Counted from the first letter of the stretch, positions 1,975 through 27,770 are shown. The stretch is DNA of 64,000 nucleotides from an uncultured Amylibacter sp. (GCA_943846615.1 OX044354.1:622359-686358), one strand, 5' to 3'. Numbers and translations are program-made. Notes: generated from the sequence alone by a model not told the origin.

Positions 1975-1988
1975 CAAAGAGGTATGTG

Positions 1989-6499: not shown

Positions 6500-6546
6500 G
6501 GATTGCAAATCCGTGTACACGAGTTCGATTCTCGTACTCGCCTCCA
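6500..6546 (+). repeat. R1: 3' 47 nt of a tRNA-Cys(GCA) gene (anticodon loop to CCA), no 5' half
   Basis: Sequence is ggaTTGCAAAtccgt gtac ACGAGttcgattCTCGT actcgcc t cca. It shows the anticodon loop with GCA, the T-arm, the 3' acceptor strand, discriminator U and CCA. No matching GGCGAGT acceptor 5' strand lies upstream. Confidence 0.85.
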
Positions 6547-6685
6547 ATAAAATCAATGGGTTAGCCAATTTTCGTGCAATATGGTTTGTAAAACGGTTCC
6601 CACGAATGCAAAAACACTAAGTAAAATAAGCAATTGTGCTGATCTTACCCCCCCGACTTTCAATGTTTGCTTAGGGCCCTTTCCT
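6547..6685 (+). repeat. cassette left arm (homologous to 23535-23685)
   Basis: Shared blocks include ataaaatcaatgggttagc, tGTAAAAC and cttcaatgtttgctt.g.gccct. Confidence 0.6.
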
Positions 6686-6937
6686 TACAAATTTCAATCC
6701 ATCGTTAGGAACCATATCGTGGAGGGGATGAATTTGGAAACTAAGATATGAATTACGGCCCATTCTTCGTTTCGCATCAGCTCCTCTGCTGTGTGACACT
6801 AACGTCTCATTCATTCAGGGTGCCTGTTTGATGACAGTTGTGCCGGCTAAGAATCTCGCTTGTTTTTATGATTGGTATTCTAATAAATTCATGTATTATT
6901 ATTTAAATTCTTGTGACCTAAGAAATGGGGGCTTCTT

Positions 6938-8926
6938 ATGCCAACTAATATTATTAAAAAAACCGCAATGGGTGCGTCTCTGATAGCAATGTCCGTGGCT
7001 GCTCCTGCAGTATTTGCGGATACTCCTGCAAAAACAGTTAACTGGGAAGGTACATATGCCGGTGTCGGTTTAGATATTTCAGACACGAGTGTTGCCGGCT
7101 CGACAGATTATGGGGGGATGTATGGTGGTGATATAAAGCCTTCTCCAAATATATCTCTTGGTAAAAACTGGCAATCTGGCAATGTTGTAAAAGGTATTGA
7201 GCTTTCCTTTTTTGGTGGAATGGATGGCGGCTATCTTTTTGATGAACCACAATTTAACAATGCATATTTGGCGACTTATGATTGGAATTGGGCAGCATCT
7301 ATTTCTGGCCGCGTTGGTATTGCGAATGGTCGCTGGCTAACTTACGCCTCCGCAGGTGTAACTTATGCCGATCTCTTTCTTTTAGCGAGTGAAGACCAAC
7401 CATTGGCTACTGACACATACGCAATTTTTTCCGATTCCAAACAATTGGGCTTCAACGCAGGATTTGGCGTGGAATATGCGTTAAATAAGGGTGGATCGTT
7501 GGGATTGGAATATGTTTATACAGCATTTCCATCGGTTTTTTCTGATACACGACCAAATGGTGCAACCTCAAACTCAGCAGGTGATCTTGCTACAGATTCC
7601 CATACGCTTCGGTTCACTTATAATTACTACTTTGGTGATGGATTGAAGGAAACTGAAAACAGTTCTCTAGATCCTTCCGCCTCATGGGCGGGTGGATATC
7701 TATCGACTTTTGCCCAAGCTGGATTAATTTTGGACGATAACCTGAATGGTAATTATTACGGAAACACTCGTGCCTATTCTTCTGCAAACGCTCTAGGGCT
7801 TGGCGTTGGATATAATTGGCAGATTGGTAATTTTGTTTACGGTGCGGCTGTTGATGTAGCCAGCGGTGGTTTAAAATCTGATTCATACTATGGGGACGAT
7901 TACGCAAAAGAGCTAGAGTGGAATTGGCTCACAACTATCAGAGGCCGTGCAGGTATCGCTACTGGTGATTTGTTATTTTACGGAACGGCAGGGCTTGCAG
8001 TGGCCGATGCTTTCATGGGCCTTTGTGACACAACTAATGCTTCTAACGGATGCGATGCTGCTGACTTTGAAAATACTTATGACGGCACTACTTTGGGATT
8101 GGTCGCTGGGATTGGTGCTGAATATCGCTTAAGCGGACGTAGCACAATTTTCATGGAATATAATACACTATCGTTTCCTTCGGTTTTATCCACGACTGCA
8201 GGAAGTACCGCACCTGTCGGAGCGGCAGATTCTACAGCAAGTGCGCACTTCTTGAAATTTGGATTAAATTATTCCTTTGCGCCGAGCCAATCAAAAAGCG
8301 CCGTTGAAACCCACGACTGGTCAGGAACTTACGCAGGGCTTGCTTTCGCACCTCAAAACCAATTTCTATCTGCAGCACATTACGATACTGGTGGTAACGG
8401 CGCTGAATTAGTGGTGCCTGCTGCTGTTACGTTTGGTAAAAATTGGCAAAGTGGAAATTCAGTGTGGGGCATTTCCGGTGATTTCATGGCTGGCGCTGAT
8501 GAAGTGCATATCCGTTGGGATGATTTTGATTATCAAATTGCTTCTCAGTGGAATTGGTCAGCGTCAATACGCGGTCGAGTGGGTATAGCAACTGGCGATG
8601 CTCTTTTATACGCAACTGCAGGTGTGACCGTTGCAGATATCGAAGCTAGATCTTGCGAATCCAATGGCCCTGGCTCTACGGATTGTACTTTTGCAGGCTC
8701 TTCCGATGTTGAAGCAAGTATTGACGATATCTTTGTTGGCCTCACAGCGGGTATAGGTATTGAGTATGCTGTGAAAGAGAATATGAGTATGTTTGCTGAA
8801 TACCGTTACACTGGATTTTCAAGTAAAAGCAGATTTGGATCGGCAGTTGCGTCAGACTATTATGGTGATTTTACAAATTACAGCCACGGAGTGTTGTTGG
8901 GATTGAACTACAAATTTGGTAAATAA
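6938..8926 (+). CDS. outer-membrane protein with three tandem Omp25/Omp31-type beta-barrel domains
   Basis: Signal peptide ...SVAAPAVFA. Three ~200-aa units (approx nt 7019-7642, 7685-8278, 8299-8923). Each unit has WNW.ASI(S/R)GR.GIA.G..L.Y..AG(V/L)..AD, G...AG.G.EY and a terminal (Y/L)NY.F motif. Confidence 0.8.
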   Translation: MPTNIIKKTAMGASLIAMSVAAPAVFADTPAKTVNWEGTYAGVGLDISDTSVAGSTDYGGMYGGDIKPSPNISLGKNWQSGNVVKGIELSFFGGMDGGYLFDEPQFNNAYLATYDWNWAASISGRVGIANGRWLTYASAGVTYADLFLLASEDQPLATDTYAIFSDSKQLGFNAGFGVEYALNKGGSLGLEYVYTAFPSVFSDTRPNGATSNSAGDLATDSHTLRFTYNYYFGDGLKETENSSLDPSASWAGGYLSTFAQAGLILDDNLNGNYYGNTRAYSSANALGLGVGYNWQIGNFVYGAAVDVASGGLKSDSYYGDDYAKELEWNWLTTIRGRAGIATGDLLFYGTAGLAVADAFMGLCDTTNASNGCDAADFENTYDGTTLGLVAGIGAEYRLSGRSTIFMEYNTLSFPSVLSTTAGSTAPVGAADSTASAHFLKFGLNYSFAPSQSKSAVETHDWSGTYAGLAFAPQNQFLSAAHYDTGGNGAELVVPAAVTFGKNWQSGNSVWGISGDFMAGADEVHIRWDDFDYQIASQWNWSASIRGRVGIATGDALLYATAGVTVADIEARSCESNGPGSTDCTFAGSSDVEASIDDIFVGLTAGIGIEYAVKENMSMFAEYRYTGFSSKSRFGSAVASDYYGDFTNYSHGVLLGLNYKFGK

Positions 8927-8953
8927 TCCTGATCACTATTTAAAGTATTTAAA

Positions 8954-8980
8954 GGGGCGATTGATTGATCGTCCCTTTTT
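8954..8980 (+). terminator. rho-independent terminator after the OMP gene
   Basis: ggggcgat-tgattg-atcgtccc stem-loop followed by TTTTT. Confidence 0.6.
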
Positions 8981-9037
8981 GCATAGGACTACTGGAACGA
9001 TGATAAGTTGTAAAATTTCTTTTTTGAAGGCGAATGC

Positions 9038-10561
9038 ATGAGTTCTAGCACCAGCCAATTAGCAAACAAAATTCAAACCTTAATTCATTCTGGAAGATTG
9101 AATGACGCTGAAGATATACTGAAGTCAGAATGTACGCTTGTCAAAATGGATGCTGACTTAACAACGGCTGCTGGACAAATTGCCTTACAGAAAGGTGACA
9201 TATACCAATCGGTCGTTCACTTTAACCGAGCGGTAAAATTGAAGCCAAATACCTGGGAGTTTTTGAACAACCTAGCTTTAATTAATCTGAAAACCGGGCG
9301 TCCAGATTTAGCGGTTAACGCTATTCGAAAATCTGCAAAACTCAATCCTAGAAATGCCGAGACATTAAAAATCGAAATAGAGGCTTTGTTTGCATTAAAC
9401 AAAATTGAACAAGCAAAATCGAAAATCGAAAATGCGATGTCGTCAGGCTTGAGGAATGTTCATGTTCTTGTCGATCTTGCACGTATGCATCGCGCTTTGG
9501 GTCAGAATAACAAAGCCCTAAAGATATATCGTGATATATCCAATTCCCCAACTGCAACGGCTGGGGCCATTTTTGGCATGGCGCAATTAGTTGATAAGCA
9601 CGACCCTTATCCCGAAGCATCTATTGTTAACACGATGATAGAGCGTGGCGATTTACCTCCTGATCAAATGGCGAATTTGCATCGTGCAACTGCCATCCGC
9701 GCCGACCAAATATCCGACTATGCAATTGCATTCAAACACCATGAGATGGCCAGCCAAATAATTTCACACGGGCGCGATGGGACGCAAAGACTTAGGAGTT
9801 TTCTCACGCACGCAAGAAAAAATTTCACCAAAGAGAACATATCAAAGGCCCAAAAACACACAAGTAAATCAACGAAGCCGGTATTCATTTTCGGCATGCC
9901 TCGCACCGGAACAACACTAGTGGAGCAAATTATTTCAGCGAATGAAGTCGTTCATGCTGGAGGTGAAATTGATTTTTTCAATCACGTTGTTAATAAATTT
10001 GAAAATCAATGGCCTGACCGTTCTGAATTAAAGTCAATAGCGAAGGATTACCTAACGCTTTTAAAGGAACATGGCGGCACGAAGAGTTATATAACAAACA
10101 AGTTACCCGGTAACTTTCAACATCTTTGGATTATCTCAGCGTTGTTCCCAAATGCAAAATTAATTTTTTGTCAACGCGACCCATGTGCCACGTGTACATC
10201 GTGCCTTACAACTTCACTAGGTACGGTGCATGACTATGTTGGGTCGCAAAAGAATCTAGCTGACTATTACAAAATGCATTTGCAACTTATGAACTTTTGG
10301 AAAGCTAACATTTCACAAGTTATTCATCATGTTCAGTATGAAAGACTCGTGAAATATCCAAAAACAGAAATTAAGAGCCTCGCAAAATTCTTAGGGATAG
10401 ATGCAACTCCTGAAATGTTTAATTTTCACACCTCAAATCGCCCTATCCAAACACCGAGCATCGATCAGGTACGCCGCCCCATGGATACAGGAAAAGTCAG
10501 TAGTTGGAGGCGTTACGAGCCCTTTTTGCAAGAGCTAATTATCGAGCTCTCTAAGACATAA
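9038..10561 (+). CDS. TPR-repeat protein with C-terminal sulfotransferase domain
   Basis: N-terminal TPR-like helices. FIFGMPRTGTTLVEQ is a PAPS 5'-phosphosulfate loop, and FCQRDPCATCTS is 3'-phosphate-motif-like. No signal peptide. Confidence 0.8.
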   Translation: MSSSTSQLANKIQTLIHSGRLNDAEDILKSECTLVKMDADLTTAAGQIALQKGDIYQSVVHFNRAVKLKPNTWEFLNNLALINLKTGRPDLAVNAIRKSAKLNPRNAETLKIEIEALFALNKIEQAKSKIENAMSSGLRNVHVLVDLARMHRALGQNNKALKIYRDISNSPTATAGAIFGMAQLVDKHDPYPEASIVNTMIERGDLPPDQMANLHRATAIRADQISDYAIAFKHHEMASQIISHGRDGTQRLRSFLTHARKNFTKENISKAQKHTSKSTKPVFIFGMPRTGTTLVEQIISANEVVHAGGEIDFFNHVVNKFENQWPDRSELKSIAKDYLTLLKEHGGTKSYITNKLPGNFQHLWIISALFPNAKLIFCQRDPCATCTSCLTTSLGTVHDYVGSQKNLADYYKMHLQLMNFWKANISQVIHHVQYERLVKYPKTEIKSLAKFLGIDATPEMFNFHTSNRPIQTPSIDQVRRPMDTGKVSSWRRYEPFLQELIIELSKT

Positions 10562-10631
10562 TTTGTATTGTTGGCAAATTTCACAGATAGCATCCCGAAC
10601 AAGATTTCGAAAATTGTATTGTATGGCTGTT

Positions 10632-10755
10632 TTCCCCACACCTGACGTTGAGAATCGAATATCCATTTTACATTAAACTGATAACCCACTGATATTACAC
10701 GGGTACTCTGCGGTTCATTTTGCAAAATAATCTAATGAAATCAATGGATGTAGTA
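10632..10755 (+). repeat. cassette right arm (homologous to 27601-27723)
   Basis: Shared blocks include ttcccca..., tatccattttacatt, taacccactga, cggttcatttt, ctaatgaaatcaa and atgtagta, immediately 5' of R2 and R4. Confidence 0.65.
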
Positions 10756-10802
10756 GGATTGCAAATCCGTGTACACGAGTTCGATTCTCGTACTCGCCTC
10801 CA
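10756..10802 (+). repeat. R2: tRNA-Cys(GCA) 3' fragment, identical 47 nt to R1
   Basis: Same 47-mer as R1. The upstream sequence is not a tRNA 5' half. Confidence 0.85.
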
Positions 10803-10809
10803 AATAAAA

Positions 10810-11634
10810 TCAATGACTTGCGGTGAATTGTACATCTTGATGTCCTTTCGGTTTACATTGTATCCCGTCATCGCCATTGAGACAGACTGCGGGTTTGAAA
10901 TTTGCCCGTTTGGCCAGCGCCACATCGATGATCGCCAATGCATAGAGTTGGCCAAAGAGTGTTGGCAAGAATAAGAAAACACCCGGACCAATCCCACCAA
11001 GCAAAGTTAGGTCGCGCATTTGGGATACAATCTGTAAATCTAAACTGCTGACATAATATGAAACCATGATGGCAATCATCATGGTGATTAACAGTCTGGC
11101 AACTGCCTTGCGGTTACTGACGGGGCGATGTTCGATTGGGATGCGGTCAGGCATGCGGCCGCGTTCCAACAGCTTGAACGAATAGACGGCGAAGCCAAGT
11201 AAACCCGATATAATTGCGCTGAAATGAAGTGAATACCCAATGTCAAAAAATGAGCTAAGGGTAATATTCGCCAGATCGAGTAAAGCGCAAATCAGGGCGT
11301 AACTGAATACCATATCTAACGCATACAGGAGCCGTGCGACGCCACCGCCCGAGCTGAACGCAGCGAAGGAGATAAAAAACGAAAATATGAAAATGCGAAC
11401 GGCCACGGCATGCCGCCCCTCATATGGTGACAAGACAAAATCCCTGTTTGGGAAATATGTGGACACAAAGGGTGTATTCACCAACCAAAGGAAAAAAGTC
11501 GCAATAACACAAAATGCCAACAGCATAGCGGGTGCGCGCATTTGTGAAACGGGACCAGCGAAACGTTTGGGGGCGCTGTCGACGGACACAAAGCTGATTT
11601 GATCGCGATTATCTTCTGTGTTTGTATCTGTCAA
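10810..11634 (-). CDS. polytopic membrane protein, possibly 3'-truncated
   Basis: Roughly 6-7 hydrophobic segments. The start overlaps the stop of the upstream gene by 4 nt. Its stop codon (10810-10812) lies in the conserved 'aataaaatcaatg' flank of R2. Confidence 0.45.
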   Translation of the reverse strand: MTDTNTEDNRDQISFVSVDSAPKRFAGPVSQMRAPAMLLAFCVIATFFLWLVNTPFVSTYFPNRDFVLSPYEGRHAVAVRIFIFSFFISFAAFSSGGGVARLLYALDMVFSYALICALLDLANITLSSFFDIGYSLHFSAIISGLLGFAVYSFKLLERGRMPDRIPIEHRPVSNRKAVARLLITMMIAIMVSYYVSSLDLQIVSQMRDLTLLGGIGPGVFLFLPTLFGQLYALAIIDVALAKRANFKPAVCLNGDDGIQCKPKGHQDVQFTASH

Positions 11635-13196
11635 AATGTATCCTTCGCGGCTGGAACCCTGATTAAGAGCGCATTAGGCGCGCCTAGGCGATTTAACCCC
11701 ACTTTAGAAAAATCAATTTTTTCGACCTGAATTTCACCTTCGTCGTCAAAACGAACAACCCAGTTTTGAAAACCATCCTTTATAACGTCCTCGTCAAATT
11801 GAAGGATAGAGCGATCGAAGAATGCGATGTTGCCACCCGCCCGCGTCCCAACCAGCGTAGCGTCTTTTGGGGTAAGGTAACTGATCATTTGGGACAGGAA
11901 TAATGCTTGGTTATGCGTCGTCGTCTGAATGCCGCTGACCGTTATTTTTTGCATCTTACGAAGCGCGTTTTGCAATTCTGTTAGCGGATCATCAAAGGTG
12001 GATTTTCCCGCCGTCAAAACAGTATCCCGTTCCATTTGCGCAAACATGACAGGTCCTTCATTGCATTCGCCAATGTTGACATGCGATGAATGAATGCTGA
12101 CTTCGATCAGGTTTTTTGCGTCTTGGAGTTCAATCGGCAAGTTGATGGCAGCACGGTACATACGTGCATTGCGTTCCAATCTTTGATTAAGAATAGTCGC
12201 GCCGTTCAACGTCACGTTTACCTGCCACAATGCATCATCCAAAAGCGATGACATCGTTAAATGGAGATCAAGCACATCCGGCAGTGATTGATGTTTGAAT
12301 TCACGCGGTTCGTACTTAATCCGCCAACTTGTGGTTTCATAAAACTTACGTGATCCGTAATTTGAACCTTTGACGGCAACATAGTGCGGGAAACTGATTT
12401 CTGGCTCCAATACTTTTGGCAAACTGGTTTCCAAAAGTTGCAAATTTGGTCCGGAGAATGCGTTGATATCATCCTTGGCGCTGAATTGAACGCGTTCACC
12501 TTGTTGGATGAACCGTGACGCAATTTCGATTTGCGCAACCTGGTTTTTGAGCTGTTTGTTTTCATTCCATTGAATTGGGATTTTGCGTCCCAATGCAAGA
12601 ACTTGATCGCGCGGCGTTTCAATCGCGCGATCAAGGTTCAAGTATAATCCGCTGGTCGTTTCCACTTCTACGATAGCAGCTATGCCATCTTGAGAACTGC
12701 ATGTTTGGGTGCTGTGAGACCCCAACAAGCTGTAGGAAACGACCAGCCGCTCTTTTACCAATTCCTCTGCGTGTAAAGGAATTCGCAAAGAGCGCCCTGC
12801 TTCGCCTGGATACAATAGCATTTCACCTCTTTTGGTGTTTTCAATCGAAACGCGCAGAACGCCTTTCACACCATTTAGGACCTGAGATGTAATATCTATT
12901 TGGAGGTAACCAGACGTTGGGCGCGCATCGATTGGCATCGAAAACACAGCGCCCTGATAAGCAGGTAAGCCAGTAAGAATAGTTGGGTTATCGGTGTGAG
13001 ATCCGAAAAACACATTTGTGGTATTACCAAGGTGTGCATCCCGTTCATCGACATTCGATATTTCGAAGTTCAATTGTGGACCGAATGCAATTTCGTTAAA
13101 TTGCTGAATTCCACGTTTTGTAATGTTCTGCGACGACAGTAAAAACACTGCCCACGCGACGATAAAGGCCATAAGCCCGATGCCAATCATTCTCAT
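11631..13196 (-). CDS. N-terminally anchored periplasmic protein; BcsB-like is only a weak impression
   Basis: One N-terminal TM (IGIGLMAFIVAWAVFLLS) followed by a ~490-aa soluble region. Co-oriented downstream of sqdB. Confidence 0.4.
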   Translation of the reverse strand: MRMIGIGLMAFIVAWAVFLLSSQNITKRGIQQFNEIAFGPQLNFEISNVDERDAHLGNTTNVFFGSHTDNPTILTGLPAYQGAVFSMPIDARPTSGYLQIDITSQVLNGVKGVLRVSIENTKRGEMLLYPGEAGRSLRIPLHAEELVKERLVVSYSLLGSHSTQTCSSQDGIAAIVEVETTSGLYLNLDRAIETPRDQVLALGRKIPIQWNENKQLKNQVAQIEIASRFIQQGERVQFSAKDDINAFSGPNLQLLETSLPKVLEPEISFPHYVAVKGSNYGSRKFYETTSWRIKYEPREFKHQSLPDVLDLHLTMSSLLDDALWQVNVTLNGATILNQRLERNARMYRAAINLPIELQDAKNLIEVSIHSSHVNIGECNEGPVMFAQMERDTVLTAGKSTFDDPLTELQNALRKMQKITVSGIQTTTHNQALFLSQMISYLTPKDATLVGTRAGGNIAFFDRSILQFDEDVIKDGFQNWVVRFDDEGEIQVEKIDFSKVGLNRLGAPNALLIRVPAAKDTF

Positions 13197-13262
13197 ATCA
13201 CAAACTCACACGAATTGGCGTTGATGCCCCTCCTCCAAGAGGGAGCATCAACACCGTTATGG

Positions 13263-14474
13263 TTAAGCCGCTAAAGGCTTTTGCACTAATCCTGGACGTT
13301 GGTTTTCAGTCCATGTCGAAACACAAGGGATCATGTTGACCTGACAACGCTTTGCAAATCGCATTGCGATTTCTTGCGTTTCGTCCATCAAACCTTCCTC
13401 GAGTGTGATCGGTTTAAGGCCCAACGAAATGAATGTTTTGTTGCACACCCGCAGCCCGTTTTCAGCAGCCTCGTTACGGGGATTATCAACATTCGCGATC
13501 AAGGCATCGGTAATTTTTGATACGATGTTTGCTAAATCCCGAACGGTATGGGTTTCCGTCATTTGGTTTAGGATTTTCACTTTACCATTTCGCTCTGGTG
13601 GGTTTTCCACCGCCAAGGCCAAGCATTGTACCGTGTCTTGAATGTGAATAAATGCCCGCGTTTGCCCGCCTGTACCATGGACGGTCAAAGGATGACCAAT
13701 GGCAGCTTGCATCAAGAACCGATTTAAGACGGTGCCATAATCACCATCGTAATCAAAACGATTGATCAAACGGTCATCCAATTTTGTTTCCGCCGTTTGC
13801 GTTCCCCAAACGATACCTTGGTGTAAATCCGTAATCCGCAGGCGATCATTTTTGGCATAAAATTGAAACAACAACTGATCCATAGATTTCGTCATATGGT
13901 AAACACTGCCCGGATTAGTTGGGTACAAAATATCGCGTGGATAGATTTGTTTGTCATCCCCAGGAATGTAAACTTTCAAATATCCTTCGGGAATTTCAAT
14001 GCCATCATCGTCGTAGCCATAAACACCCATCGTCCCGAGGTGAACAACGTGACTGTCCAGTTTTAGATGCGTGATCGCGGCCAAAATATTGTGCGTTGCG
14101 GAGATGTTGTTTTCAACGGTGTAACATTTTTCATAGCTACCCTTCATCGAATATGGCGCCGCACGTTGTTCGCCAAAATGAATAATTGTGTCAGGTTTTA
14201 AGCTTGCTAACAGTTTTTCCAACTGATCGTAATCGGTTGCCACGTCGATTTCATCAAAGGCAATAATTTTACCAGTTTCTTCTTTCCATGCCTGCAAACG
14301 CTCTTTCATGCTGCAGATTGGTGTCAGGCTGTTCGCGCCCAACTCGATATCAATTTCACGGCGCGCAAAATTGTCTACGATTGATACTTTGTGTCCAAGA
14401 TTTGACAGGTGCAATGCTGTTGGCCATCCGCAAAATCCATCGCCGCCAATTACCAGAATATTTTTCATTTTCAT
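13263..14474 (-). CDS. sqdB: UDP-sulfoquinovose synthase
   Basis: MKNILVIGGDGFCGWPTALHLS Rossmann start, YHMTK (YxxxK), ~400 aa. The overall sequence is familiar from SqdB/SQD1. Confidence 0.85.
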   Translation of the reverse strand: MKMKNILVIGGDGFCGWPTALHLSNLGHKVSIVDNFARREIDIELGANSLTPICSMKERLQAWKEETGKIIAFDEIDVATDYDQLEKLLASLKPDTIIHFGEQRAAPYSMKGSYEKCYTVENNISATHNILAAITHLKLDSHVVHLGTMGVYGYDDDGIEIPEGYLKVYIPGDDKQIYPRDILYPTNPGSVYHMTKSMDQLLFQFYAKNDRLRITDLHQGIVWGTQTAETKLDDRLINRFDYDGDYGTVLNRFLMQAAIGHPLTVHGTGGQTRAFIHIQDTVQCLALAVENPPERNGKVKILNQMTETHTVRDLANIVSKITDALIANVDNPRNEAAENGLRVCNKTFISLGLKPITLEEGLMDETQEIAMRFAKRCQVNMIPCVSTWTENQRPGLVQKPLAA

Positions 14475-14659
14475 TTCTTTCCATTATCGCCGGTCGAAAT
14501 TGACGAATGCAGTCATTGCATTTTCGGCGTCTCTGAAACCTTTGTATTCTGAAGACGGGTATGAAATCTTCTGTCAGGGAGTATAGAGAAAGATGTAAAA
14601 GTTTAGCGGCACTATCCCTTAGGATAGTTTTGACGGTCAAAATGGTGGTCTGTGAAAAC

Positions 14660-15358: not shown

Positions 15359-15395
15359 CTGTCGTGTGCCTGCATTGTTATGGTTAGGGTTGATT

Positions 15396-17182: not shown

Positions 17183-17224
17183 ACCGCCTGCCCCGCCACA
17201 GTATGTAAATTATTGTGTGTAATT

Positions 17225-19661: not shown

Positions 19662-19692
19662 ATATTCCTCGTTTTAATGTGTTATAAATAAT

Positions 19693-19719
19693 ATACGATG
19701 GAGACTTGGCCTTGGATCA
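19693..19719 (-). promoter_or_regulatory. RpoE(sigmaE)-type promoter for the oxidoreductase-cfa operon
   Basis: The minus strand reads TGATCC-aaggccaagtctccat-CGTAT, ~30 nt before the ATG at 19661. Confidence 0.6.
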
Positions 19720-19737
19720 ATGTTTTTGATTTTTTTT

Positions 19738-19764
19738 TGATCCGAAAACGGACAAGCTTCGTAT
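19738..19764 (+). promoter_or_regulatory. RpoE(sigmaE)-type promoter for the DUF1365-SDR operon
   Basis: TGATCC-gaaaacggacaagctt-CGTAT, 10 nt before the ATG at 19775. Confidence 0.6.
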
Positions 19765-19774
19765 TTAGGGTATT

Positions 19775-20542
19775 ATGTTAGAACACATCCAAGCAAAAAC
19801 GTATCACTCGCGCCGCGGGAGCCTTAAGAACGCTTTCAGCTATGGCGTTGATTATGTGATGAGTGATTTGAAAAATGATGACAGTTTTTTGTTGTCATTA
19901 AATCGCTTTAACCTGTGGTCGATTTGGGACTTCCGTCATGGTGGGCTGCGCGGGCATGGGCAAGGTGTTGAATGGTTCAAGCAAGAATTGACTGTGCGGG
20001 GTTTGAATTTGGATGGCCTGCAACTTGTTCTTTTAACGCAACCAAGTTTCCTTTGGTTTCATTTTAATCCCGTCAGTTTTTGGATAGCACTGCGTGATGA
20101 AGTACCTATAGCGATTATCGCAGAAGTGAATAACACATTTGGACACCGGCATTGTTATTTTTGCGCGCATTCCGATTTTGGACCTATCGACAAATCGCAT
20201 ACAATCATCGCAGAAAAAATGATGCATGTTTCCCCTTTTCAAAAGGTAGCTGGTCAATATCTGTTTAATTTCGACATCTCTAGTGCGGAGATTTCAATCC
20301 GCATTGATTATCGCAATGGCGAACATGGTGTGCTGGCAACACTTGCGGGTAGGCGCCGCTCTGCTTCAAACCGATCACTACTTAAGGCCGCAATAATGCG
20401 CCCGTTTGGGGCCGTTCGGGTTGTTGCGTTGATACATTTTCAGGCGATCATTCTGTATTTAAAGCGTGCGCCTTTCACGAAAACACCAACCCCACCAAAA
20501 CAACCCACCTCAGACAGTTGTTCGTTTAGAAAGAAATCGTGA
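19775..20542 (+). CDS. DUF1365-family protein
   Basis: 255 aa, at the conserved position divergent from the oxidoreductase-cfa genes. The family name is from memory. Confidence 0.5.
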   Translation: MLEHIQAKTYHSRRGSLKNAFSYGVDYVMSDLKNDDSFLLSLNRFNLWSIWDFRHGGLRGHGQGVEWFKQELTVRGLNLDGLQLVLLTQPSFLWFHFNPVSFWIALRDEVPIAIIAEVNNTFGHRHCYFCAHSDFGPIDKSHTIIAEKMMHVSPFQKVAGQYLFNFDISSAEISIRIDYRNGEHGVLATLAGRRRSASNRSLLKAAIMRPFGAVRVVALIHFQAIILYLKRAPFTKTPTPPKQPTSDSCSFRKKS

Positions 20543-21267
20543 TGACGAAGTTTTCAGGTAAAACATATTGGTTGATTGGCGCCAGCGAAGGTTTGGGGCG
20601 CGCATTGGCCAAAAAACTGAGCGACGCGGGGGCGCATCTAATTTTATCGGCGCGCAATCGCGCGCGGCTTGAAAGTTTGTCCGCGACATTACCCAATGCA
20701 CGGGTTTTGGTTTTGGATGTGACGGATTCTGTTGCAGTGGAAAATGCCATCGCAAAAATTGGTGCCATTGACGGTGTGATTTACAACGTGGGTGCCTATG
20801 AGCCAATGCGCGCAACCGAATGGGATGTGGACGCAGCCTTGTTGATGACAGAAGTGAACTTTACCGGTGCGCTTCGGGTATTGGGAGGTGTTGTTCCGAA
20901 ATTTTTACGTTCAGGACACGGTGACATTACCTTAATCGGTTCATTGGCCGGATATCGCGGGTTGCCGGCGTCAATTGGATATGGGGCAAGCAAGGCGGCA
21001 CTGGTCAGCTTAGCAGAAACAATGCGCCATGATTTGAAGGGTACTGGCGTTATCGTACGGGTCGTCAACCCTGGTTTTATAAAGACGCGCTTAACGGAAA
21101 AAAACGCGTTTAGGATGCCGATGCTTATGTCGAGCGATAAGGCCGCCACTCGTGTATTAAAGGCAATGTCGTCGAAGCGGTTTAGAACAGACTTTCCTGC
21201 TCCGTTTTCTTGGTTCATTAAAGCACTTCAACTTGTTCCAGATTTCGTTCTGTACCGCGGAAAATAA
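20539..21267 (+). CDS. short-chain dehydrogenase/reductase
   Basis: LIGASEGLGRALA glycine motif and YGASKAAL (YxxxK). Confidence 0.85.
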   Translation: MMTKFSGKTYWLIGASEGLGRALAKKLSDAGAHLILSARNRARLESLSATLPNARVLVLDVTDSVAVENAIAKIGAIDGVIYNVGAYEPMRATEWDVDAALLMTEVNFTGALRVLGGVVPKFLRSGHGDITLIGSLAGYRGLPASIGYGASKAALVSLAETMRHDLKGTGVIVRVVNPGFIKTRLTEKNAFRMPMLMSSDKAATRVLKAMSSKRFRTDFPAPFSWFIKALQLVPDFVLYRGK

Positions 21268-21304
21268 AGTAGAATGATCCGTTATTAGCGACATCATTAA
21301 ATAT

Positions 21305-21338
21305 AAAAACCTGTGCCGATCTTTGCGATCAGCACAGG
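21305..21338. terminator. hairpin terminator between convergent SDR and fasciclin genes
   Basis: cctgtgccgatc-tttgc-gatcagcacagg. The minus strand continues with TTTTTATAT. Confidence 0.55.
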
Positions 21339-21381
21339 CAGCAATTTTGGTGTGATTAGGATCTAGAACAGACCGTTTTGA

Positions 21382-21897
21382 TTAATGACAAGCAGGGCGT
21401 GTGCCTGGCAATAGGACTTTGTCGATGACGTGGATAACACCGTTATCCGCCATGATATCCGCAATAACAACATTTGCCATTTCCCCTGTTCCATCTGCGA
21501 TTTTAACGCCGCTGCTGTCAGCCTTGATGCACAAACGTTCGCTGTCCAACAGTGGTTTGAAATAGTTCGATCCAGCAGGGATCATTTCAGCAGATAGTTT
21601 CCGATCATCAACATGGTAAAGTAGAATGTTGGTTAACTGATCTTTGTTTTCCGGTTTTAGCAATGTTTCAACCGTGCCCTCTGGTAGTGCCGCAAAAGCA
21701 TCATTTACAGGTGCGTAAACAGTGAATGGACCCGGACCCGATAAAGCATCAGCCAATCCAACCGCGCCAACTGCGGCGACCAATGTAGAAAAGCGTGCAT
21801 CAGCCGCAGCAATTTCAACGATGTTGTCTGCTTGTACGGCGCTGGTAGAAACGACAATTGCAAGTGCGGCGGCGGCTGTTTTGAATGGGTTAGTCAT
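21382..21897 (-). CDS. secreted fasciclin (FAS1) domain protein
   Basis: Signal peptide, FTVYAPVNDAF and HVIDKVLLP motifs. Confidence 0.8.
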   Translation of the reverse strand: MTNPFKTAAAALAIVVSTSAVQADNIVEIAAADARFSTLVAAVGAVGLADALSGPGPFTVYAPVNDAFAALPEGTVETLLKPENKDQLTNILLYHVDDRKLSAEMIPAGSNYFKPLLDSERLCIKADSSGVKIADGTGEMANVVIADIMADNGVIHVIDKVLLPGTRPACH

Positions 21898-22024
21898 TTA
21901 GAAATCTCCAAAGTTGGTAGGCTTATTAGCCTGTTTAATTTTGTGTTAGTATAAAGGTTACGCATGGCAACAGCGTATGGATTACAACTTCACAAGAACG
22001 TGATAATAATCCCGTAAGTATTTG

Positions 22025-22060
22025 AAATAAAAAGAAACCACCGAACAATTCGGTGGTTTC
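22025..22060 (-). terminator. rho-independent terminator after chrR
   Basis: The minus strand reads gaaaccaccgaa-ttg-ttcggtggtttc followed by TTTTTATTT. Confidence 0.7.
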
Positions 22061-22085
22061 GAAAAGGTTATTAATGTGTGTTTGT

Positions 22086-22721
22086 TTAGATTCTAAACAA
22101 TGGCTGGAAGAGGCGCGGCACCAAGGATTTGAACCGCAGAGGCGCATCGGTTGCGGCGAGGCAAATACATGGATCGCCTGGGTCTGCTATCGGCGTATGT
22201 TCGAGATCAGGGTCACCAATTTCAACATCCCCAATTCCAAATTGACCAGTGTGGTCACTAAAGCTTCCTTGTAAAATCAAGGTCAATTCCAATCCGCTAT
22301 GGCTGTGTTCTGGCACGGCTTGGCCAGCGGGAATGTAGAGCAATCTTAATGAACCCTCGCTGTCTGCGGACAGAATATCCTGACGCACTCCCATTCCCAA
22401 AGTTTTCCAACGCGGCTCATTACCTTTTAGTGTTTTAACAACGGGTCCTGGATAAATACCTGATCGATCGTAAACCGCCGCCGGTGTGAATGGCTCATCA
22501 AGTTGCGTAAGAATACTTGATTTAAGATCGCCCGAGATTTTGGCAATCTCTGTTCCGTCAAGGACAACCCCTCCTACCGCTTGATGGGCTTCGTATGAAC
22601 CACGGCAATGGGCGCACATTGAAATATGGCTAGCGACAACAATAGCGAAAGGTTGCGGAAGAGTACCCGCAGCGTAGGCCGCTAACATGGAATCTGGAAT
22701 GTGGTGATTAATTTTGGTCAT
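22086..22721 (-). CDS. chrR: anti-sigma-E factor ChrR (zinc anti-sigma domain + cupin)
   Basis: HISMCAHC (HxxxCxxC) and a C-terminal cupin region. Its start abuts the stop codon of rpoE. Confidence 0.85.
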   Translation of the reverse strand: MTKINHHIPDSMLAAYAAGTLPQPFAIVVASHISMCAHCRGSYEAHQAVGGVVLDGTEIAKISGDLKSSILTQLDEPFTPAAVYDRSGIYPGPVVKTLKGNEPRWKTLGMGVRQDILSADSEGSLRLLYIPAGQAVPEHSHSGLELTLILQGSFSDHTGQFGIGDVEIGDPDLEHTPIADPGDPCICLAATDAPLRFKSLVPRLFQPLFRI

Positions 22722-23353
22722 TATCTTAAACCTTTTAACTCAAGTCGAAGTCGTTCTAGACCAAGACGTATGCGTGATTTTATCGTCCCAAGTGGAAGAC
22801 CAGTTTGTTCACTGATTTCTTGGTGTGTTAATTCCCCTAAATATGCCTTTTCGACGGCTAAACGTTGATCATCACTGAGTTGAGCAAGCGCCTGTCTTAA
22901 GTGTTGCCCTTCTTGATCAAGTGCCAGCATTTGGCTTATATCGCATTCCAAACTTGGTGGTTCGATCAACTCTTCGGGCAATGGTCTATTGTTTTTACGA
23001 ATGACATCAATTTGCCGATTGCGTGTTATTTGATAAATCCATGCGGATACCTGTGCGCGATGGGGATCAAATTGTGCGGCTTTGCGCCAAACGGTCAGCA
23101 TTACGTCTTGCACAATCTCTTCGGCTTGCTCGCCTGGCATGCCGGTTTTCATGATAAACCCCTTCAAACGCGGGGCAAAATGATCAAACAAATTTGCAAA
23201 TGCTGCCTTGTCACGCTTGTCACGTACAGCAAGCATCCAAACGGTTTCATCAGATACTTCTTTCTGGGTTTCTTCCACCAAATTTCTTTCGTACCTGCGC
23301 GCGCCAAAAGTTGGTTTTTTGCCGCGGGTTATATTTTGTTCATAAGCTATCAT
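22721..23353 (-). CDS. rpoE: ECF sigma factor RpoE
   Basis: Sigma-70 regions 2 and 4 (DVMLTVWRKAAQFD; GLPLGTIKSRIRLG). The promoter sits only ~7 nt upstream of ATG 23353, so the TTG/GTG pair at 23281/23278 is the more likely start. Confidence 0.85.
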   Translation of the reverse strand: MIAYEQNITRGKKPTFGARRYERNLVEETQKEVSDETVWMLAVRDKRDKAAFANLFDHFAPRLKGFIMKTGMPGEQAEEIVQDVMLTVWRKAAQFDPHRAQVSAWIYQITRNRQIDVIRKNNRPLPEELIEPPSLECDISQMLALDQEGQHLRQALAQLSDDQRLAVEKAYLGELTHQEISEQTGLPLGTIKSRIRLGLERLRLELKGLR

Positions 23354-23360
23354 ACACTCA

Positions 23361-23387
23361 TTACGAATGCTCAGCGTTTTTGGATCA
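23361..23387 (-). promoter_or_regulatory. RpoE-type autoregulatory promoter
   Basis: The minus strand reads TGATCC-aaaaacgctgagcatt-CGTAA. Confidence 0.6.
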
Positions 23388-23489
23388 CTTTTGTGATTTT
23401 TTTCCTCTCATTGAGGGAAAAAAGTGTTGGTCAAAGTATTACGGCATTTTGCCCCCCAACCAATTCAACGATCTATCATCCGCGTAATT

Positions 23490-23534
23490 ATTGCAAATCC
23501 GTGTACACCGGTTCGATTCCGGTACTCGCCTCCA
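23490..23534 (+). repeat. R3: variant tRNA-Cys(GCA) 3' fragment (45 nt)
   Basis: attgcaaatccgtgtac ACCGGttcgattCCGGT actcgcctcca. The T-stem differs from R1/R2/R4 by paired (compensatory) changes. Confidence 0.8.
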
Positions 23535-23685
23535 ATAATATCAATGGGTTAGCTGTTTTACGTGCAGTGATTAATGTAAAATGGCCTGTAAAACAGCCCC
23601 TATGGGTGCACAAGACACCAAATCATCCTCGACTGTTCTGATCTCGGCTAGTCTGCGATCTTCAATGTTTGCTTTGAGCCCTTAT
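23535..23685 (+). repeat. cassette left arm (homologous to 6547-6685)
   Basis: Contains ataatatcaatgggttagc, GTAAAAT (23576), GTAAAAC (23588) and cttcaatgtttgctttgagccct. Confidence 0.6.
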
Positions 23686-23925: not shown

Positions 23926-26900
23926 TTAAAATCGGATGTTATACTTCAGGCCACCGCTTAACTGAATATGCCCACCACTGGAAGCTTGTAGCTCACCATT
24001 GGCGCTAAACGTTTTCAAGCCATCTTCGGATACACGCTTGAAACTTGCGCCCGCGAAACCACCAAGTAAATCGTTTGCACTGGCATCAAAGTTTAATGCC
24101 CCGCCCGCGACAGCGCCTGTTACGTCAGAACTAAGATCGAATTGCCCTACAAGACCCGCGCGCCATTCTACATTTTGCTGCGACCCATCCTTGTTTGTCG
24201 TGTTGCTAGGAAGTGCCAGTTGTGCGCGAACATCCAGAATATGCACATCACGCGCATCAATGCTTGCATTGTTTGTGACGCCCGTTTCGGTATAGCCGTC
24301 CATGAATAGGCCTGTGTAGCCAACGCGTAAGCTACCAATAGCGTCGCGCGCGGCAACTGATACAGGTTTCGAAAATGTCGCTGCTGGTGATATGAACCAG
24401 CCGTCATAGTTGGCCGAGGCCGTTTCGACCCCACCGCTGACTGTGTTGTTTGCAACATTACGTTCATGTTCATGATTGGCAGTCCCTGCCACAAGAGATA
24501 GATTTAGGTCATAGTTCCCAAGCCCCCCGTCCCAGCTTAGGCCTGCGAAGGCACTGCTGATATCCGTTTGGCTCGCATTGCCTTGAACATCTGCCGAACC
24601 TGAGCTGCCACCAGCAAAGATATTTATCGCCCCTGTGTCATAACCTGCAATAACACCAGCAAAGTGACTATCAACGGATGCTAACGATCCACTTGCGCCG
24701 GTCTGACCAATACTCCCAAAAGCACTTACCCATGCGCCTCGTTGTGAGGCTTGATAACTTTTACTTACTTCGGCTACGGGTTCCAATGTCGGAGCCGATT
24801 GACCCAAAACGTTGTGGATGCCGGTAGAAAGATCACCAATAAGCAAATTTGAAACGGCAAAACCAGTTGGGTCTACCGCTACAACATGGTCTGCAGATGG
24901 CATTACATAAGCCGTTGCATTCACCTCAGTAGGGCCATTGCCGGAAGTAAAACTTAAATCCGCATTTAGTCCAGCGCCGATGTTTAAAGTCCTGCTGCCA
25001 GCCCCACTCATTGCAATTTCGCCCATGATCTTAGAGCCGCTCAACAGTGTTAGGGCAGAATCTGCACCCGCCACATACACACGTCCAATCGTTCCCGAGT
25101 TTGTGATCGTGCTGTTGTCGCCATTGATAGAGGCGAAGGTTCCAATCGTACCCGAATTTGTAATCGCGCTATCGACGCCACTGGTAGAGGCGAAGGTTCC
25201 AATCGTTCCCGAGTTAGTGATCGCGCTGTTGTCGCCATTGGTCCGGACATAGCCGTCAATTGTGCCCGAGTTTGTGATCGCGCTGTTCGCGCGGCTAGTA
25301 GTGGCAGCGGTTACAATCGTGCCCGAGTTTATGATCGCGCTGTTCGCGCCATAGGTAGATGCATAGTTTCCAATCGTACCTGAGTTTGTGATCGTGCTGT
25401 CGGCGCCATTGGTCTGGGCATAGCCTGCTATCGTACCCGAGTTAGTGTTGGTGATCGCGCTGTTTTCTCTTAAAGTAAAGGCATCGCCATTTATCGTACC
25501 CGAGTTTGTGATCGCGCTGTTGGCGCCAAAGGTATTGGCAGAGCGTTCAATCGTGCCCGAGTTAGTGACCGCGCTGTTAGCGCCATAGGTCAGGGCATAG
25601 AGTTCAATCGTGCTAGAATTTGTTATCGCGCTGTTGTCGCCATTGGTAGTGGCAGAGGCTTTAATCGTGCCCGAGTTTATGATCGCGCTGTTAGCGCCAT
25701 AGGTCAGGGCATTGAGTTCAATCGTGCCTGAGTTAGTGATCGCGCTGTTGTGGCTACGTGTAGTGGCATAGCCTCCAATCGTGCCCGAGTTAGTGATCGC
25801 GCTGTACTCCTCCTCCGTATAGGCAAAGCTATAAATCGTGCCCGAGTTAGTGATCGCGCTGTTGGCGCCTTCGGCATCGGCAAAACCTTCAATCGTACCT
25901 GAGTTTGTGATCGCGCTGTTGGCGCCATAGGTCCGGGCATTGCCTTCAATCGTGCCCGAGTTTGTGATCGCGCTGTCGGCGCCAATGGTAGTGGCAGAGT
26001 TTCCAATCGTGCCCGAGTTAGTGATCGAGCTGTTGGCGCCACCGGTTGCGGCGAAAGATCCAATCGTTCCCGAGTTTGTAATTGCGCTATCGACGCCACT
26101 GGTAGAGGCGAAGGTTCCAATCGTGCTCGAGTTTGTGATCGCGCTGTTGTCGCCATAGGTCTGGGCATTCAAGTCAATGGTGTCCGAGTTTGTGATCGCG
26201 CTGTTGGTGCCCCTCGTAACGGCATAGTCTTCAATCGTGCCCGAGTTTGTGATCGCGCTGTTGTCTCCCTCAGTCAAAGCATCACCTTCAATCGTGCCCG
26301 AGTTTGTGATTGCGCTGTTGTTGCCTGTGGTAGAGGCATTGCCTCCAATCTTGTCCGAGTTTGTAATCGCGCTGTCGTCGCCTGTGGTAGAGGCAGGACC
26401 TTCAATCGTGTCCGAGTTAGTGATCGCGCTGTTGGCGCCATTTGTAGTGGCAGAGCCTTTAATCGTACCCGAGTTAGTGATCGCGCTGTTGGTGCCCCTG
26501 GTATGGGCGAAGGGTCCAATCGTACCTGAGTTTGTGATCGCGCTGTTGGCGCCATAGGTTCGGGCAAAGGCATTAATTGTGCCCGAGTTTATGATCTCGC
26601 TGTTCGTGCCATCGGTAAATGCGTAGTTTCCAATCGTACCTGAGTTCGTGATCGCGCTGTTGTTGGCGCCATCGGTCTGGGCATAGCCTACTATCGTACC
26701 CGAGTTAGTGTTAGTGATCGCGCTGTTTTCCCCCTCGGTATAGGCATTGGCATTTATCGTACCCGAGTTAGTGATCTCGCTGTTGGCGCCAAAGGTATTG
26801 GCAGAACGTTCAATCGTGCCCGAGTTAGTGATCGAGCTGTTAGCGCCATGGGTCAGGGCATTGACTTCAATCGTACCCGAGTTGTTAATAGTCCTACTAT

Positions 26901-27084
26901 CACCGCTGGTTTCGACGCCACCTGATAACGTTACTCCAGAATCTACGACACAAGGGTTGTTGTTTATACCTACAACACATGCGGCTTGCGCGAGCGCAGG
27001 TGTCGCCCCAATACCCGAAAGGCAAGTCGCAGTTAAAAGGCTGGAAACCAGTCCCGTTGGTGCATTGAAGTAATTACGTGTCAT
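23926..27084 (-). CDS. autotransporter with highly repetitive passenger domain
   Basis: The start at MTRNYF... (ATG 27084) gives a signal peptide ending ...ATPALAQA. The passenger is made of 32 AITNSGTI-type 19-aa units. The C-terminal ~280 aa form a beta-barrel ending GGLKYNIRF. Confidence 0.85.
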   Translation of the reverse strand: MTRNYFNAPTGLVSSLLTATCLSGIGATPALAQAACVVGINNNPCVVDSGVTLSGGVETSGDSRTINNSGTIEVNALTHGANSSITNSGTIERSANTFGANSEITNSGTINANAYTEGENSAITNTNSGTIVGYAQTDGANNSAITNSGTIGNYAFTDGTNSEIINSGTINAFARTYGANSAITNSGTIGPFAHTRGTNSAITNSGTIKGSATTNGANSAITNSDTIEGPASTTGDDSAITNSDKIGGNASTTGNNSAITNSGTIEGDALTEGDNSAITNSGTIEDYAVTRGTNSAITNSDTIDLNAQTYGDNSAITNSSTIGTFASTSGVDSAITNSGTIGSFAATGGANSSITNSGTIGNSATTIGADSAITNSGTIEGNARTYGANSAITNSGTIEGFADAEGANSAITNSGTIYSFAYTEEEYSAITNSGTIGGYATTRSHNSAITNSGTIELNALTYGANSAIINSGTIKASATTNGDNSAITNSSTIELYALTYGANSAVTNSGTIERSANTFGANSAITNSGTINGDAFTLRENSAITNTNSGTIAGYAQTNGADSTITNSGTIGNYASTYGANSAIINSGTIVTAATTSRANSAITNSGTIDGYVRTNGDNSAITNSGTIGTFASTSGVDSAITNSGTIGTFASINGDNSTITNSGTIGRVYVAGADSALTLLSGSKIMGEIAMSGAGSRTLNIGAGLNADLSFTSGNGPTEVNATAYVMPSADHVVAVDPTGFAVSNLLIGDLSTGIHNVLGQSAPTLEPVAEVSKSYQASQRGAWVSAFGSIGQTGASGSLASVDSHFAGVIAGYDTGAINIFAGGSSGSADVQGNASQTDISSAFAGLSWDGGLGNYDLNLSLVAGTANHEHERNVANNTVSGGVETASANYDGWFISPAATFSKPVSVAARDAIGSLRVGYTGLFMDGYTETGVTNNASIDARDVHILDVRAQLALPSNTTNKDGSQQNVEWRAGLVGQFDLSSDVTGAVAGGALNFDASANDLLGGFAGASFKRVSEDGLKTFSANGELQASSGGHIQLSGGLKYNIRF
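25054..26892 (-). repeat. 32 tandem 57-bp (19-codon) coding repeats
   Basis: Counted unit by unit from the translation. Two units are 21-22 aa. Units 2-5 resemble units 24-27, and unit 14 resembles unit 30, which indicates a higher-order duplication. Confidence 0.85.
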
Positions 27085-27600
27085 TGATGTGCCCTTAAAA
27101 TATTTTAAAGTATTTTCCTGTACAGCTAACAATTTATTAATATTAATAACAAGATGAAACATTCAAAATCGCAAGCGTTGTGTTGAAAGCATATTTTGGG
27201 AACGTACCTTAACCTCCTGAAATTGCGCCAAGCCATTATTTGCTAGCCCAAGGCGTAACGAAATATGGTGCTGAAACGGTATTCAGCTGAAGATGATCGC
27301 AAGATAGATATGCATCTACACGATGGCTTGGGTATTGTGAGTTCCAGTCGGAAACAGAAGCTTCAGACTAGAGTTTTTACTATTGGCGTAAGAAATTTGG
27401 AGCGCTGGATAATTGAGTTTTCACTTTTCCACGTCGGAAATGTCAACTTGGGCTCTTTGCCGGCATCGCCGGTAAGTTTTCCTCAATTGGTGGTCGAATG
27501 ACTGCTTTTCGAAAATTGGACCTAAAAGTTTATAGCCGAGCGAAGGTCTGCAATCCGCCCGTTTAAGTCATTGGACAGATTTGTCGAAACGGTCACTAAG

Positions 27601-27723
27601 TTCCCCATAGCCACATTTGAGGCCAATTATCCATTTTACATTCGACTATTAACCCACTGAAATTCCACGGGCACTCTACGGTTCATTTTACAAAAAAACC
27701 TAATGAAATCAACGAATGTAGTA
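27601..27723 (+). repeat. cassette right arm (homologous to 10632-10755)
   Basis: See the 10632-10755 entry. Confidence 0.65.
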
Positions 27724-27770
27724 GGATTGCAAATCCGTGTACACGAGTTCGATTCTCGTACTCGCCTCCA
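27724..27770 (+). repeat. R4: tRNA-Cys(GCA) 3' fragment, identical 47 nt to R1/R2
   Basis: Same 47-mer, followed by ataaaatcaatgggtta as at R1. Confidence 0.85.

Follow-up and report, generated by a model that had tools for sequence, protein, structure and literature searches.

Four tRNA-Cys 3' ends in an uncultured Amylibacter: probable scars of tandem accretion, with two integrase-less surface-protein cassettes resembling cis-mobilisable elements

A 64,000-nucleotide (nt) stretch of DNA from an uncultured Amylibacter sp. (GCA_943846615.1 OX044354.1:622359-686358; hereafter the window) contains four direct copies of the 3' end of a tRNA-Cys(GCA) gene, R1 to R4, which bracket two cassettes, E1 (between R1 and R2) and E3 (between R3 and R4). 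The most probable explanation (about 0.8) is tandem accretion of mobile elements at a tRNA-Cys attachment (att) site: the four tRNA tails are likely to be the scars of successive insertions, and the two cassettes are likely to be elements that have shrunk to 4.2 kb, carrying surface-protein genes and no integrase, in the manner of cis-mobilisable elements (CIMEs). Each core would be the 47-nt stretch, from the anticodon stem to CCA, which tyrosine-integrase elements have in common with the tRNA-Cys gene and which is duplicated on integration. Successive integrations at a tRNA-Cys lying outside the window would each have shifted the earlier elements, along with one copy of the core, rightward; the order that we infer to have resulted is tRNA-Cys, E0, R1, E1, R2 and then chromosome, E0 being the youngest slot, in which exchange between strains would be ongoing. 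E1 and E3 would descend from a family of ~50-kb integrase-bearing elements that use this site, having lost the integrase and all other element genes and retained, on either side of one or two surface-protein genes, both arms (one with TTTTACA twice, the other with an inverted copy), and R3-E3-R4 would be another unit of this element type, placed apart.

Cores, arms and cargo of the two cassettes

The 47-mer GGATTGCAAATCCGTGTACACGAGTTCGATTCTCGTACTCGCCTCCA, which covers tRNA-Cys(GCA) from the anticodon stem through CCA, has three exact matches on the + strand of the window: R1 at 6500-6546, R2 at 10756-10802 and R4 at 27724-27770. Shuffled sequence yields none, the chance expectation for the exact 47-mer being 0. 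The remaining copy, R3 (23490-23534, +), consists of the final 45 nt of the repeat, and its sole change, from CGAG/CTCG to CCGG/CCGG, is paired and compensatory, such that the T-stem is kept. No tRNA gene was found by ARAGORN or Rfam in the entire window. A preliminary description of the locus, made from the window alone, had reported four tRNA-Cys 3' copies on the + strand, none of them an intact tRNA, with start-to-start spacings of 4256 nt (R1-R2) and 4236 nt (R3-R4), and was correct on all these points. R1 lies at the junction of E0 with E1 and R2 closes E1; rightward of R2, similarity to a left arm spans only ~12-20 nt. An inverted partial core of 11 nt at 39212-39222 was judged to be a chance match.

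E1 and E3 are ordered alike, with a core, a left arm, the cargo, a right arm and a second core, the cores and arms all being on the + strand. The right arms, at 10660-10755 in E1 (P-type) and 27628-27723 in E3, are ~90% identical, and weaker similarity extends back to ~10629 and ~27597 respectively; the left arms, at 6547-6682 in E1 (P'-type) and 23535-23684 in E3, align with indels at a score that was reached by 0 of 2000 shuffles. Beyond these arms and the cores, the two cassettes share nothing. The right arm contains TTTTACA at -92 and -40, TAACCCACTGATAT near -80 and AAATCAAYG near -20 (AAATCAATG at ~-20 in E1), whilst the left arm has ATAAAATCAATGGGTTA beside the core in E1 and bears an inverted TGTAAAA at +40. 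A common motif layout is found in the right arm of the ~50-kb tRNA-Cys elements of family B, in which GTTTACA occurs twice and GTAACCYATTGA and AAATCAAC are in matching places. On sequence comparison, the E1 and E3 arms are homologous to, though diverged from, those of these large elements, and their motifs are putative arm-type integrase sites. The same right arm precedes a core in four further loci (L124, L125, L126, and L088 and L127, which are counted once), all with other cargo or flanks; across the six independent loci, which come from different lineages, it is 75-90% identical. One of them, L088, is a cassette of 946 nt, in which an intact tRNA-Cys is followed by a matching left arm, one small gene, the right arm and a core.

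Pfam searches of all large open reading frames (ORFs) detected no integrase in E1 or E3, and blastx comparison of the E1, E3 and L088 left arms, and of the sequence following R2 and R4, with integrases adjacent to tRNA-Cys genes revealed no integrase remnants at E<0.1. The one or two cargo genes leave E1 and E3 without space for integration or transfer genes, and neither cassette contains residual genes of a parent element. Scans for promoters and terminators fell below shuffle expectation. Folding with RNAalifold, applied to the right-arm alignment only, detected no structure outside the T-stem of the tRNA, to which covariation was likewise restricted.

The cargo of E1 consists of two genes on the + strand: one (6938-8926) encodes a 662-aa triple-barrel outer-membrane protein (OMP), which is matched by PF13505 (OMP_b-brl) in three stretches and has only 11 homologues among 5.8 billion proteins, and the other (9038-10561) a 507-aa tetratricopeptide repeat (TPR)-sulfotransferase with matches to PF13469, PF00685 and TPR families. 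These may be a functional gene pair. On an unrelated short contig of 3.3 kb (L190, 88-3268), which lacks the arms, a gene for a triple-barrel OMP (48% identical) adjoins one for a TPR-sulfotransferase (34% identical) in convergent orientation. The E3 cargo, on the - strand (23926-27162), encodes an autotransporter-like protein of 1078 aa, in which a signal peptide is accompanied by ~38 repeats of 19 aa (57-nt period) and by a barrel at the C-terminus that ends in ...YNIRF. The whole protein had no Pfam match in our own scan; fragments of it in two sister assemblies (L128 and L129) have a precomputed match to PF03797 (Autotransporter). The passenger region corresponds to ~30 tandem 57-nt units at 25031-26910 (19 aa, consensus NSAITNSGTIxxxAxTxGx), which lift the local GC content to 53%. 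The cargo ORFs of both cassettes are intact. The preliminary description had also proposed that the two intervals share left and right arms, contain no integrase and carry unrelated cargo; each of these proposals is upheld, the arm similarity having survived proper alignment.

The tRNA-Cys attachment site and turnover between strains

An exact-pattern genome scan for the core, made with one genome per species, recovered at least 119 stretches, nearly all of them belonging to roseobacter-group Rhodobacteraceae. Among the matches listed, the pattern is in most loci the 3' part of an intact tRNA-Cys, preceded by GGCGAGTTGGCGGAGTGGTGACGCAGC; about a quarter, counted by reading the printed flanks, are bare 3' fragments, all of which begin at the identical GG|ATTGC position and which are preceded by a few recurrent types of right arm. 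In the main types, A and B, a conserved 269-aa gene starts ~230 nt from the core. At least two contigs carry both an intact tRNA-Cys and, ~50 kb away, a fragment. An integrase beside the tRNA-proximal att site, absent from E1 and E3, is present in at least ~20 related loci of other genera, in the form of a tyrosine integrase gene that runs on the opposite strand and terminates in a stop codon 65-90 nt past CCA; the integrases linked to the site belong to several subfamilies with 29-97% identity. The core is also found on 36 IMG/VR contigs, many of which resemble phage attP sites with a longer piece of the tRNA. The 47-nt segment of tRNA-Cys is thus a heavily used attachment site in Rhodobacteraceae, the family to which the window's genome, that of a marine roseobacter, also belongs, and is shared by ~50-kb integrase-bearing elements, phages and small islands, and the 3' end of this tRNA represents a major, little-described integration hot spot across the roseobacter group.

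In a set of the IMG/VR contigs (L156, L158, L160, L162, L168, L172-L174, L176, L179, L182, L183, L186 and L187), the core is preceded by ...GCAGCGG and non-tRNA sequence; these contigs represent two to three viral groups, with phage attP sites containing a tRNA-Cys segment longer than the 47-nt core of the islands. In L124, the tRNA-Cys core is directly followed by six tandem 17-nt units, GACTTCCATCACCTCCA, at 603-704, each of which ends like a tRNA 3' end (CCTCCA).

Among the matches listed, the CCGG/CCGG T-stem found in R3 is typical of the family and the CGAG/CTCG form of R1, R2 and R4 is rare. Despite its rarity, the latter is native to the lineage of the window, as the intact tRNA-Cys(GCA) of a close relative, L149, is identical to R1, R2 and R4 over 47 of 47 nt of its 3' part; the T-stem of R3 is foreign to this lineage. 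A third compensatory variant, GGAG/CTCC, occurs in L125, giving three in total among the copies and their relatives. The copies in the window thus appear to stem from tRNA-Cys genes that were functional in at least two host lineages, as would be expected if incoming elements bring their own core.

L149 shows the empty site; it has 88.8% nucleotide identity with the window over 8.8 kb. There, PCMT, OEP, a 240-aa gene, cobQ and a 189-aa gene are followed by the intact tRNA-Cys, 40 nt and then the rpoE block, the homologue of the window from 14660 onward through rpoE; none of the genes from PCMT to the 189-aa gene is in the window. Look-ups of the cobQ orthologue, which yielded short-read contigs only, recovered a contig from the sample series of the window's organism (L151) that carries the cobQ orthologue and the 189-aa gene and ends in ...GGCGAGTTGGCGGAGTGGTGACGCAGCGG, the 5' half of the tRNA, stopping precisely at the start of the multi-copy 47-mer. 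From the synteny with L149 and this contig end, we conclude that an intact tRNA-Cys probably heads the array, beside cobQ and beyond the left end of the window, and that 14656-23414 is probably the chromosome natively following it.

This conserved backbone block (14656-23414) is a RpoE-ChrR regulon in which Pfam matches identify a 232-aa protein, DUF3833, a major facilitator superfamily protein, a cyclopropane fatty acid synthase, an amine oxidase, DUF1365, a short-chain dehydrogenase/reductase, fasciclin, ChrR and an extracytoplasmic function sigma factor; it is collinear, and 79-89% identical in nucleotide sequence, in L147, L148 and L149. An extra segment of 3.85 kb (10803-14655, -) separates R2 from the block; its genes encode a membrane protein of 274 aa, a 521-aa protein resembling BcsB and an NAD-epimerase. 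L149 lacks this segment at the empty site, and no repeat marks its right end; the segment is either an older island that has been truncated or a lineage-specific indel. The earlier view of the whole R2-R3 interval as backbone without arms is therefore right for 14656-23414, which directly follows the intact tRNA-Cys in L149, but does not extend to 10803-14655. The rpoE-chrR block adjoins differing tRNAs: in L149 the neighbour is tRNA-Cys, in L150 it is tRNA-Arg(ACG), and L147 has a Trp-like 3' end where its contig stops. On the other side of the block, no two genomes have the same flank.

From 6500 to beyond 33 kb, the window is matched at 99.6-100% identity by long-read metagenome contigs from four samples, over a span that covers E1, R2, R3, E3 and R4. 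The strains diverge at exactly 6500, the first base of R1, to the left of which there are two unrelated types of E0: some contigs have E0a, the type found in the window, and others E0b, which comprises a family-B right arm, the conserved 269-aa gene and AbiEii/DUF6088 genes. In two contigs (L133 and L134), which are 99.95-100% identical to the window from 6500 on, a family-B element lies directly left of R1. As unrelated DNA to the left of 6500 is thus joined to near-identical DNA on its right, the tRNA-R1 slot has recently been refilled, whilst E1 to E3 are fixed.

The part of E0a in the window (1-6499) is the right-hand part of a strain-variable island, which runs for >5 kb past the window start, where it includes MmeI-type restriction-modification, ResIII helicase and T5orf172 genes, giving a total of >11 kb. 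Its GC content is 39-42%, and it encodes a frameshifted ResIII/Helicase_C protein and a 340-aa coiled-coil protein, among others. The helicase gene (3110-4773, -) is split into three ORFs of 64, 99 and 397 aa in the window and forms one gene of 635 aa in sister contigs L132, L139 and L140; the split form is either a pseudogene or a sequencing error in one assembly. E0a also contains a serine recombinase gene with resolvase and helix-turn-helix domains (1968-2543, +; PF00239, E = 6e-33), the protein product of which differs between strains.

At the distal end of E0a lies an ORF (6137-6451, -) that retains approximately the last 100 aa of a tyrosine integrase of the DUF6538 type and has lost the N-terminal three quarters. 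Direct searches with this stump (Pfam, NCBIfam, PHROG and PDB) returned no match. An exhaustive representative search found 965 homologues; because the full-length ones (366-408 aa) carry DUF6538 and PF00589, with the stump aligning over their C-terminus, it is, by transitive homology only, a real integrase C-terminal remnant. By eye, the Arg of its HxxR box is replaced by Ser. The preliminary description had regarded this stump as the only integrase trace left of R1: the remnant is genuine, but it shares E0a with the serine recombinase gene.

Placement of the second unit and mobility of the cassettes

A number of observations weigh against accretion followed by reduction as a full account of the locus. 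The intact tRNA-Cys at the head of the array is not on one contig with E0, its position being taken from the synteny with L149 and the short-read contig end. The short arm motifs are each within chance level alone, and acquire weight only from their conserved positions across copies. No integrase-bearing parent with the exact TTTTACA arm subtype is present in the genome, metagenome and viral scans: searching by the arms gave 0 matches in IMG/VR and 4 in metagenomes, all of which are attR ends or the L088 locus, and plasmid and phage databases gave matches to the tRNA core only. E1 and E3 are present and identical in all available strains, turnover being confined to the slot left of R1, and among these strains neither cassette yielded an excised circle, an empty junction or a presence/absence polymorphism. 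Lastly, R3-E3-R4 lies beyond the rpoE block, 12.7 kb away and beside no tRNA, with no recognisable right arm left of R3, a position that simple accretion does not explain.

The preliminary description took the entire locus to be one accretion array. Much of this survives, in that the repeats appear to be att-site scars, E0 and E1 are probably in tandem downstream of the off-window tRNA-Cys, and E1 and E3 keep both arms without an integrase. It fails for R3-E3-R4: none of the relatives L147 to L150 has a tRNA-Cys or a core copy beyond rpoE, and their flanks there all differ. R4 is followed by a 50-nt left-arm stub (27771-27820, +) with TGTAAAA at +41, apparently the remnant of a further, truncated element (E4), the score of which was reached by 0 of 2000 shuffles against the E3 left arm and by 3 of 2000 against the E1 left arm. 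With a right arm, a full native core and this stub, R4 looks like an internal junction of two elements. A weak resemblance to a right arm seen by eye left of R3 or R1 (CGG..CATTTTGC) was no better than that found in shuffles. R1, R2 and R4 are identical to a functional tRNA, yet the adjacent block is 11% diverged from L149; the core copies are therefore young or have been homogenised.

In one account of the second unit, which we regard as possible but somewhat unlikely, a single continuous tandem array would run from the off-window tRNA-Cys to R4, comprising E0, E1, E2, E3 and the E4 stub; the R2-R3 interval would be an old island slot, and the rpoE-chrR block would have arrived or been captured as cargo. 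The flanks are those expected of tandem junctions, with the E1 right arm preceding R2 and the E3 left arm following R3; the ~20 nt after R2 resemble the left arm of L011-type elements, and the changing tRNA neighbour and variable far flank of the rpoE block would also fit. However, L149 has the tRNA-Cys adjacent to the block but no repeat beyond rpoE, in L147, L149 and L150 the block is not bordered by direct repeats of a tRNA end, and the GC content of the block is backbone-like. In addition, R4 matches the functional tRNA at 47 of 47 positions beside a block that has diverged by 11%, and could hardly have been displaced before the lineages split unless the copies have been homogenised.

A tentative alternative, of about the same weight, is that a circle of two elements, E3 and E4, with two cores, was excised from the main array and re-integrated via one core at a hypothetical pseudo-att site upstream of rpoE, E4 being truncated later; it is similarly tentative that R3 would then be a hybrid junction and R4 an intact internal attP-like junction. 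tRNA-targeting integrases of this class are expected to exchange strands at the anticodon loop, and it is there that the identity of R3 begins, 2 nt later than in the other copies (TTATTGC vs GGATTGC). Neither a tRNA 5' half nor a right arm lies left of R3; a right arm, a core and a left-arm stub meet at R4; none of the relatives has the R3-E3-R4 unit; and other elements are documented to integrate at secondary sites and in tandem (PMC5704250). Set against this, the right-hand hybrid junction that such an event predicts, a right arm with a partial core, is not in the window, such that a further deletion must be assumed.

E1 and E3 appear to be passive now, and would in principle be excisable by a related integrase acting in trans. 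The preliminary description had noted that CIMEs can be mobilised in trans or by accretion; of continuing movement of E1 or E3 we found no evidence, both being fixed in every strain seen. It seems unlikely that units of this type are still active, as a family of integrase-less cassettes moved in trans by the integrases of co-resident elements, for instance the family-B element in the E0 slot. The completeness and conservation of both arms would accord with such activity, as would the identity of the right arm over the six independent loci, the different cargo in every instance, the intact cargo ORFs and the family-B element directly left of R1 in L133 and L134; against it stand the presence and identity of E1 and E3 in all available strains, the failure to recover a circular or empty junction, and arm motifs unlike those of family B (TTTTACA vs GTTTACA). 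If minimal cassettes can be mobilised in trans, they would provide a simple route for swapping outer-membrane and surface-modification genes in abundant marine bacteria.

Despite their unrelated cargo, the lengths of E1 and E3 (4256 and 4236 nt) coincide with the 4.2-kb headful of a roseobacter gene transfer agent (GTA): DsGTA, of Dinoroseobacter, packages 4.2 kb, and RcGTA ~4 kb (PMC5786225). It is nevertheless very improbable that E1/E3-type units are integrase-less, att-armed cassettes with a length tuned to this headful, travelling whole in GTA particles and re-entering via the tRNA-Cys core or the arms; the L088 cassette has the same arms and measures only 946 nt, which counts against a general size rule, and nothing ties the locus to GTA packaging.

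The reading of the copies as decayed duplicates of the tRNA-Cys gene or an assembly artefact, with no mobile elements involved, can draw on the occurrence of tRNA genes in arrays and the breaking of short-read assemblies at these repeats, but is refuted by the common starting nucleotide of all copies, arms that are shared with integrase-bearing elements of other genera, the foreign T-stem variant of R3, the onset of strain divergence exactly at R1 and the identical layout in four independent long-read assemblies.

Relation to known systems and neighbouring genes

CIMEs keep attL and attR, have lost integration and transfer genes and undergo tandem accretion (PMC5704250); in Streptococcus thermophilus, both CIMEs and tandem accretion are known among islands related to ICESt1/ICESt3 (Pavlovic 2004, Bellanger 2011, as cited in PMC5704250). 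Similarly, E1 and E3 end in attL- and attR-type sites with a common, directly oriented core, have no integration and transfer genes, the cargo being kept and the element backbone gone, and stand in tandem with another element having the same att core. In contrast to the S. thermophilus CIMEs, the elements here target a tRNA gene's 3' end and the host is an alphaproteobacterium, with the intact gene probably at the attL end and arrivals entering on the tRNA side; the functional partner that would excise or transfer E1 or E3 is hypothetical, the candidate parent being known by arm homology and not by residual genes; and R3-E3-R4 is not contiguous with the array.

The locus also resembles the islands, integrative and conjugative elements and prophages that target tRNA genes by means of tyrosine integrases of the anticodon-loop att class: the direct repeat is the 3' part of the tRNA, from the anticodon stem to CCA, the integrase adjoins the tRNA in full-length relatives, occupancy of the site varies between strains, and the newest element has a low GC content and defence genes. 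Unlike these, E1 and E3 lack an integrase and amount to only 4.2 kb with one or two genes. Integrative mobilisable elements and satellites such as Salmonella genomic island 1 (SGI1) and the mobilisable genomic islands (MGIs) are comparable in their tandem integration at one site and their dependence on helper functions (PMC5704250); such elements encode their own integrase and usually have an oriT or a relaxase, whereas E1 and E3 encode none of these.

In being small, promoter-poor units of one or two genes, with variable cargo, bounded by recombination sites and placed in series, E1 and E3 are reminiscent of integron cassettes. An integron array was rejected, as no attC-like hairpin was found on folding the right-arm alignment, there is no attI and no IntI-like gene, the cargo is in mixed orientation (+ in E1, - in E3), and the sites are 47-nt tRNA cores with the ~100-150-nt arms typical of attP. 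A transposon with terminal inverted repeats or a miniature inverted-repeat transposable element was likewise rejected: the only inverted matches between the arms are internal motifs of 12-16 nt, and the flanking repeat is a 47-nt tRNA core at one specific site.

The locus adds a lineage and an anatomy to a known mechanism, and is not a new mechanism. It provides a clear case of a tRNA attachment site gathering elements, in which the tRNA-side slot still swaps defence islands between near-identical strains and the older arrivals seem to have been reduced to bare att arms around surface-protein genes kept by the host; what makes it valuable is how cleanly slot turnover can be followed at strain level, together with the minimal-cassette family and the second unit, R3-E3-R4.

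Beyond R4, a gene at 27990-31859 (-) encodes an unusual 1289-aa fusion of a Mur ligase (N, M and C domains), an AMP-binding enzyme, a PP-binding carrier domain and a thioesterase, and is followed by DUF218 and Stf0-type sulfotransferase genes. The only Rfam match in the window, at 34129-34256 (+), is to the Ruegeria cis8 small RNA (82.6 bits against a gathering score of 58), and lies antisense inside a TctA transporter gene (33780-35294, -). A surface polysaccharide cluster at 45879-52954 encodes a Wzy-like ligase, a Wzz/tyrosine-kinase, a sulfotransferase-glycosyltransferase fusion and two family 2 glycosyltransferases (GT2). Sulfation genes are plentiful in the region, being found in this cluster as well as in the form of the sulfotransferases in E1 and at 32525-33265.

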